A stretch of 64,000 nucleotides of DNA from Escherichia coli. Its GTDB lineage: Bacteria > Pseudomonadota > Gammaproteobacteria > Enterobacterales > Enterobacteriaceae. The notes beneath the pieces were generated by a model, which ran no database searches, had not been told where the DNA came from, and was given only the letters and a program-made list of their open reading frames with translations. Shown in pieces: positions 54,826 through 54,955 of the stretch; position 1 is the stretch's first letter, and every line of letters begins with the position of its first letter. The stretch lies in NCBI RefSeq assembly GCF_003018255.1, contig NZ_CP027440.1. One strand, 5' to 3'. A program made the translations under genes and the position numbers.

Positions 54826-54925
54826 AATCAATAGCTCCTGAAATCAGCGAGAATCTAAGACCTTCCACAATGGACAGGTCAGGTAGCCAGAACCCCCATC
54901 AGGCGCGTCCTCATCGGCTACGATG

Positions 54926-54955
54926 TAAAAATGGGTCTGGAAATGAACTTTTCAA
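54926..54955 (-). promoter_or_regulatory. Sigma-32 heat-shock promoter of ibpAB
   Basis: Minus strand CTTGAAAA-N13-CCCATTTTT fits the sigma-32 consensus CTTGAAA / CCCCATnT, about 100 nt upstream of ibpA. Confidence 0.75.

Follow-up and report, generated by a model that had tools for sequence, protein, structure and literature searches.

The small heat-shock gene ibpA of Escherichia coli K-12 is preceded by a ROSE-like RNA thermometer (RF01832; Waldminghaus et al. 2009 as cited in PMC3669281), and the leader that contains it was described with three stem-loops (bioRxiv 10.1101/2020.04.20.050740). When fused to bgaB, the ibpA thermometer of E. coli raised expression 4-fold between 25 and 42 °C, as quoted in PMC3669281, and deletion of its bulged G is cited in PMC2896394 as abolishing thermosensing. 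The anti-SD motif of ROSE-like elements was defined as U(U/C)GCU (PMC3669281). Transcription of ibpAB was reported to be RpoH-dependent and heat-induced (PMC10410725; bioRxiv 10.1101/2020.04.20.050740), and IbpA was reported to repress its own synthesis via the ibpA 5' UTR (bioRxiv 10.1101/2020.04.20.050740; PMC10410725; PMC10474464).

The region studied here lies in a 64,000-nt stretch of E. coli DNA, the whole of which is referred to as the window. It shares with the K-12 system, as far as the latter is cited in PMC3669281, the same gene, the same locus (yidE-ibpB-ibpA / yidQ-yidR) and the three stem-loops (SL1, SL2 and SL3), and is identical to K-12 in SL2, the SL3 core, the SD, the spacer to the AUG and the promoter. 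The founding ROSE element, ROSE1 of Bradyrhizobium japonicum hspA from the alpha-proteobacteria, has in common with the window the U(U/C)GCU motif, the imperfect pairing of the SD, the bulged G, the 3'-proximal position of the SD hairpin and the placement upstream of a small heat-shock gene (PMC3669281), whereas it has four hairpins and a different sequence. The short ROSE-like ibpA thermometers of Pseudomonas share the gene family, the anti-SD motif and the succession of a stable 5' hairpin and a labile SD hairpin (PMC3669281), but they consist of two hairpins in 61–62 nt, compared with three hairpins in ~96 nt in the window. The thermometer in the ibpB leader of the same operon (Gaubig et al. 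2011 as cited in bioRxiv 10.1101/2020.04.20.050740) resembles that of ibpA in its SD-masking hairpin with a bulged G and in being repressed by IbpA, as far as that citation describes it; unlike the ibpA leader, it has different upstream hairpins and is without a sigma-32 promoter of its own.

The ibpAB locus in the window

Genes were located by reading the strand together with the list of open reading frames. The minus strand carries yidE (52016–53701), ibpB (ATG at 54300) and ibpA (ATG at 54825–54823), and upstream of ibpA lie yidQ, divergent on the plus strand, and then yidR on the minus strand. The ibpA coding sequence (54412–54825, minus strand) comprises 137 amino acids and a stop codon, and its product is identical to K-12 IbpA at 137 of 137 residues (100%), including R93 and the C-terminal IEI motif.

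A 901-nt query across the region matched 5,419 of 5,426 complete E. coli genomes at ≥95% identity, and the RefSeq features lying under this match were 'ibpA', 'ibpB', 'yidQ' and 'ROSE'. The annotation of 'ROSE' together with ibpA at the homologous place was found in 5,417–5,419 of the 5,426 genomes. Over 14 kb (48000–62000), only one of the 5,426 complete genomes, DETEC-S792 (NZ_CP116067.1), reached 99.7% identity with the window, and all remaining genomes were at most 98.5% identical, which marks the lineage of the window as an uncommon one within E. coli. Despite this background, the ibpA region is strongly conserved.

With a probability of roughly 0.93, we take this to be the native control region of ibpAB, the small heat-shock operon of E. 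coli, made up of a sigma-32 promoter, a leader with a ROSE-like thermometer and feedback by IbpA. The promoter and the thermometer of ibpA are already known and are already annotated by standard pipelines. All the elements named in the initial annotation were found, and its interpretation is supported. Two plus-strand open reading frames that overlap the region (54870–55001 and 54931–55059) were rejected as mechanical ORFs without support.

Several further elements were observed in the operon. The ibpA-ibpB intergenic leader (54301–54411, minus strand) folds into four hairpins, with an MFE of -40.4 kcal/mol (z = -2.9). Its SD hairpin, CUC-G-CUUC UUA GAAG-GAG (54309–54326, minus strand), corresponds to the published ibpB thermometer, and this ibpB leader hairpin had no Rfam match at E ≤ 1. 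Directly after the ibpA stop codon there is a GC-rich hairpin, GGCCGC-CUUGC-GCGGCC (54386–54404, minus strand), which is not followed by a U-run and may serve processing or stability within the operon instead of termination.

A sigma-54 promoter has been reported for ibpB. The ibpA coding sequence contains a sigma-54-like GG-N10-GC site, TGGTAAATGGTTTGCT (54476–54491, minus strand), which agrees with the consensus at 8 of 11 positions and is the only site with a GG/GC core in 54290–54700. After ibpB follows a strong intrinsic terminator (53836–53856, minus strand) of the form GCCCCGCCA-UUC-UGGUGGGGC with a U-run. Sub-threshold Rfam matches to anti-hemB, GcvB and Hrs1 at 53828–53900 coincide with this terminator hairpin and were discarded as terminator look-alikes.

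The sigma-32 promoter of ibpA

The initial annotation had assigned a near-consensus sigma-32 promoter to minus-strand positions 54926–54955, about 100 nt upstream of ibpA. The elements CTTGAAAA-N13-CCCATTTTT, with the full string CTTGAAAAGTTCATTTCCAGACCCATTTTT, were located by exact match on the minus strand at 54927–54956; the promoter itself was recovered, and its position had been shifted by 1 nt. From the end of the -10 element to the ibpA ATG the distance is 104 nt and the predicted leader measures ~96 nt, so the distance of about 100 nt was correct. With up to two mismatches allowed, the full string has this single match in the 64 kb window, and shuffled sequences give 0.01.

Both strands of the window were scored against the sigma-32 consensus of PMC6687850 and PMC10216364 (-35 TTGAAA / CTTGAA, -10 CCCCATWT/CCCCATNT). 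The ibpA site, CTTGAAA-13 nt-ACCCATTT, matches 13 of 14 consensus positions, and one site scoring at least 13/14 was observed in the 64 kb window versus 0.16 expected from dinucleotide-preserving shuffles. The -35 element CTTGAAA (54950–54956, minus strand) accounts for 7/7 of these matches, and the form CTTGA(A/T)A was present in 80 of 80 ibpA upstream regions from Enterobacteriaceae. The -10 element ACCCATTT (54929–54936, minus strand; consensus CCCCATNT), which follows after a 13-nt spacer, matches at 6 of 7 specified positions. Among the 80 Enterobacteriaceae ibpA loci, the spacer was 13 nt long in 78 and the -10 element matched at ≥5/7 positions in all. Conservation by column across the 80 loci was 86–100% in the promoter motifs and 35–65% in the spacer. 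This comparative footprint suggests, independently of the consensus score, that the motifs are kept as a sigma-32 promoter.

The start of transcription was predicted from the geometry of dnaK P1, the reference sigma-32 promoter. In the cryo-EM structure of the sigma-32 open complex, the dnaKp1 'consensus promoter' scaffold is numbered from -39 to +15, with CTTGAA at -35 to -30 (PMC10216364), and this numbering puts CCCCATTT at -15 to -8. The two promoters share CTTGAA at -35 to -30, (C/A)CCCATTT at -15 to -8 and identical spacing, and they differ in the first C of the -10 C-tract, which is an A in ibpA. Since the ibpA elements superpose exactly on the scaffold (CTTGAA at 54956–54951 and ACCCATTT at 54936–54929, i.e. 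-15 to -8), the predicted +1 is G54921 on the minus strand, giving a leader of 96 nt. By analogy with dnaKp1, transcription of ibpA would start at about G54921, and the equivalent position is a G in 69 of 80 related loci.

A scan of 53600–55300 found no sigma-70 promoter and therefore gave no evidence for an overlapping housekeeping promoter. Farther upstream, an A8 tract at 54971–54978 (minus strand; about -50 to -57 from the predicted +1) is followed by GTCCG, and an 'AAAGTC' motif upstream of the -35 element is partly conserved among other Enterobacteriaceae (56–88% per column). The A8 tract and the AAAGTC motif are a candidate UP element or regulator site.

The leader, its hairpins and temperature

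The ibpA 5' UTR would extend over ~96 nt (54826–54921, minus strand) from the predicted +1. The full Rfam ROSE_2 model (RF01832, positions 1–73 of 73) matched 54819–54891 on the minus strand with 96.6 bits against a gathering score of 65 (E = 2.9e-22). The K-12 leader scored 100.4 bits, and 12 of 20 loci tested were above the threshold. In the Rfam search of the region the original ROSE family had no match at E ≤ 1, and only ROSE_2 and a sub-threshold ROSE_3 were returned.

The leader was folded with ViennaRNA, and the MFE and centroid structures alike consist of three hairpins. SL1 (54884–54920, minus strand), defined by the MFE fold and by covariation, has the base UAGCC...GGCUA with an upper stem and begins 1–2 nt from the predicted +1. 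SL2 (54859–54880, minus strand), GACCU-G-UCCA UUG UGGA-AGGUC, was taken from the MFE fold; it has 9 pairs, 3 of them compensatory, and is paired in 95% of cells of the comparative alignment. SL3, the putative thermosensor CUC-G-CUG AUUU CAG-GAG (54835–54851, minus strand), agrees between the MFE fold, the Rfam model and conservation. Within it, the anti-SD UCGCU (54846–54850, minus strand) pairs imperfectly with the SD AGGAG (54835–54839), and G54848 is bulged, being unpaired in every predicted structure. The AUG is predicted to be unpaired, 9 nt downstream of the SD in SL3.

Several features that mark a ROSE-like thermometer occur together here: an Rfam score above the gathering score, a location in the 5' UTR of a small heat-shock (alpha-crystallin) gene, three hairpins (the class has between two and four) of which the 3'-proximal one contains the SD, and U(U/C)GCU with a bulged G. 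The ROSE_2 score and the modelled pairing of the SD with UCGCU agree with the earlier proposal that a ROSE-type leader would occlude the SD. In the fold of the leader plus AUG, SL3 has a predicted probability, P(SL3), of 0.98 at 25 °C, with the SD region paired.

The stability of the fold says little in this case. The leader has an MFE of -29.4 kcal/mol (z = -0.66) and 50 of 200 shuffled sequences fold as well, so thermodynamic stability is no evidence here. A comparison of folding at 30 and 42 °C had been suggested as a check on the thermometer; it was carried out and did not discriminate. The isolated SL3 core is indeed weaker when warm, with a dG of -5.7 kcal/mol at 25 °C and of -3.4 kcal/mol at 42 °C, but P(SL3) in the leader plus AUG is still 0.88–0.90 at 45 °C. 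When 15–60 nt of the coding sequence were added to the fold, competing structures dominated and the trend with temperature became inconsistent, even reversed. Because the predicted masking of the SD is barely temperature-sensitive and depends on the length of coding sequence included, in silico folding neither supports nor refutes thermosensing, and multi-temperature folding was rejected as a discriminating test. The same conclusion was reached for ibpA in a simulation study, where its melting did not differ significantly from that of ordinary mRNAs (PMC2896394). The evidence for thermosensing comes from experiments on the K-12 sequence and would apply to the window allele by analogy.

The numbering of the deleted residue in the literature was also compared. 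The deletion is called 'G71' in PMC2896394, at the place where it is cited, while the bulged G54848 is nt 74 when counted from the predicted +1 at G54921. This 3-nt offset implies either a mapped or cloned 5' end at ~54918 or another numbering.

In the mechanism that we propose, sigma-32 RNA polymerase would start at the near-consensus promoter, at about G54921 as judged from the geometry. SL3 is expected to be weak, with UCGCU and its bulged G pairing imperfectly with the SD AGGAG, so that at low temperature 30S binding would be limited. With rising temperature SL3 would melt gradually and allow more translation, a behaviour that was shown for K-12 in the literature and is presumed for the window allele. 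IbpA oligomers would bind the structured leader and hold down translation of their own mRNA until protein aggregates sequester them, a layer of control that the initial annotation does not mention. The features on which the IbpA self-repression operator of the Miwa/Taguchi model depends (SL1–SL3, R93 and the IEI oligomerisation motif) were found in the window, and the binding of IbpA is taken from the literature.

Conservation, natural variants and alternative readings

To describe how the leader is conserved, the K-12 structure was projected onto an alignment of 76 distinct Enterobacteriaceae leaders and standard pairs were counted per cell. Standard pairs occupied 89.8% of cells, versus 84.4% in shuffles and 36–51% with the partners slid. 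Double-sided changes numbered 158, versus 59 in shuffles, and none of 500 shuffles reached the observed value. RNAalifold, run on the same 76-leader alignment, recovered only the upper stem of SL1 and SL3; as it missed both SL2 and the base of SL1, these two were tested with the named structure.

In the upper stem of SL1, 7 of the 9 pairs are compensatory and 92% of cells are paired across the 76 leaders, while the base of SL1 is paired in 67–76% and contains indels that lead to poor alignment. The SL3 core (6 pairs) is paired in 99.8% of cells of the 76 leaders with an essentially invariant sequence, and because it is invariant covariation speaks neither for nor against it. Of the pairs in the Rfam model, the two outer ones of SL3 form in just 61% of cells. 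The 17-mer CTCGCTGATTTCAGGAG, which belongs to SL3, was found exactly in 68 of 82 fetched loci, at a fixed distance of ~10 nt before the ATG. Since SL1 and SL2 covary and SL3 is invariant, SL1 and SL2 are conserved as structures and SL3 is conserved as a sequence. The frozen state of SL3 fits a hairpin of marginal stability whose non-canonical geometry is intolerant of change.

The strong covariation of SL1 and SL2, which lie outside the SD hairpin, bears on what the leader is mainly kept for. It could act in vivo chiefly as an IbpA operator and aggregation sensor, with melting minor and leaky, and SL1–SL3 would then be kept because IbpA oligomers recognise the folded leader. In line with this, weakening any of SL1–SL3 abolished repression by endogenous IbpA, and aggregation-prone proteins or deletion of dnaKJ induced the reporter without heat (bioRxiv 10.1101/2020.04.20.050740). 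Binding of IbpA to the 5' UTR requires R93 (PMC10474464), a residue kept in the window, and the ordinary melting of ibpA in the simulations of PMC2896394 points in the same direction. An operator of this kind is nevertheless compatible with a thermometer, and the authors of the repression study call the two layers coupled (bioRxiv 10.1101/2020.04.20.050740). Reporter fusions, in vitro ribosome binding and probing of ROSE-like elements showed temperature control without IbpA (PMC3669281). A leader that is mainly an operator is possible, although we consider it less likely than not.

SL1 and SL2 might also serve chiefly as 5'-terminal stabilisers against degradation of the ibpAB mRNA, without taking part directly in thermosensing or in the binding of protein. 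The start of SL1 so close to the predicted +1 and its stability (-14 to -16 kcal/mol) are what such a role would call for, and hairpin I of ROSE-like elements was proposed to stabilise the mRNA as a 5'-terminal hairpin (PMC3669281). Weakening and strengthening of SL1 or SL2, however, both altered repression at the level of translation in reporters driven by heterologous promoters (bioRxiv 10.1101/2020.04.20.050740), and we consider a purely stabilising role unlikely. Layered control by the sigma-32 promoter, the ROSE-like thermometer and IbpA feedback is the reading that we prefer, and it is the one under which the variants of the window are discussed below.

Alignment with the characterised K-12 ibpA 5' UTR, a comparison that had been proposed as a check, confirmed that the two leaders are homologous and separated by two substitutions, at 54894 and 54855, with identical SL2 and SL3 cores. 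The description of the leader as intact was essentially right, with a full-length ROSE_2 match, although one of the substitutions breaks a conserved pair of SL1.

This first substitution is a G at 54894 (minus strand; U in K-12), which turns a G.U pair of SL1 into a G.G mismatch according to the alignment. The pair is standard in 68 of 76 species, and the window shares its G.G with just one other leader, from an Escherichia sp. The 61-mer with G54894 was found in 20 of 5,417 genomes, and DETEC-S792, the closest relative of the window, has a U at this position. At 37 °C, SL1 has -14.1 kcal/mol in the window versus -15.8 kcal/mol in K-12, a loss of 1.7 kcal/mol.

The second is a G at 54855 (minus strand; C in K-12), in the linker between SL2 and SL3, where by the alignment and the Rfam match the outermost C-G pair of the Rfam model is lost at a cost of 3.8 bits of the ROSE_2 score. 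Position 54855 is a C, T, A or G among genera and thus belongs to a variable linker, and an alternative outer register, G.U/A-U/U-A, is predicted for the G54855 allele at 25–30 °C. The 61-mer with G54855 was identical in 1,103 of 5,417 genomes (~20%), which makes it a common allele. The full 95-nt leader haplotype was found in 15 of 5,417 genomes, including APEC O1/O2:K1:H7 strains and SF-468.

Most likely, both substitutions are neutral or mildly modulating. Reporters with SL1 weakened at multiple sites were expressed more strongly and were less repressed by endogenous IbpA (bioRxiv 10.1101/2020.04.20.050740), so a small effect of G54894 is possible; a large effect of this allele is unlikely. 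The rare haplotype of G54894 with G54855 could be a natural set-point variant, in which a leader loosened by the G.G mismatch of SL1 would allow more basal IbpA synthesis or weaken self-repression in these lineages, a proposal to which we give little credence. That the two substitutions have degraded the element, leaving the leader of the window strain non-functional or constitutively open, is highly improbable: the mismatch at a widely kept SL1 pair, the 3.8 bits lost with the outer C-G pair and the lower SD pairing modelled for the G54855 allele with 15–30 nt of coding sequence would speak for it, but the SL2 and SL3 cores are those of K-12, leader-only P(SL3) is 0.96–0.98 for every allele combination, the loss in SL1 amounts to just 1.7 kcal/mol, about a fifth of E. 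coli genomes have G54855, which lies in a linker that varies between genera and has the alternative outer register available, and 15 complete genomes retain the exact haplotype.

The ibpA promoter and its ROSE-like thermometer are a textbook case of layered heat-shock control, in which transcription by sigma-32, an RNA thermometer and self-repression by IbpA are combined, and the present locus is of little importance beyond its correct annotation. A modest by-product is the clean comparative picture of the leader across the Enterobacteriaceae, in which SL1 and SL2 covary and the SD hairpin is frozen in sequence. The rare allele with the SL1 mismatch could provide a ready-made natural mutant for the role of SL1 in thermosensing and in the binding of IbpA.
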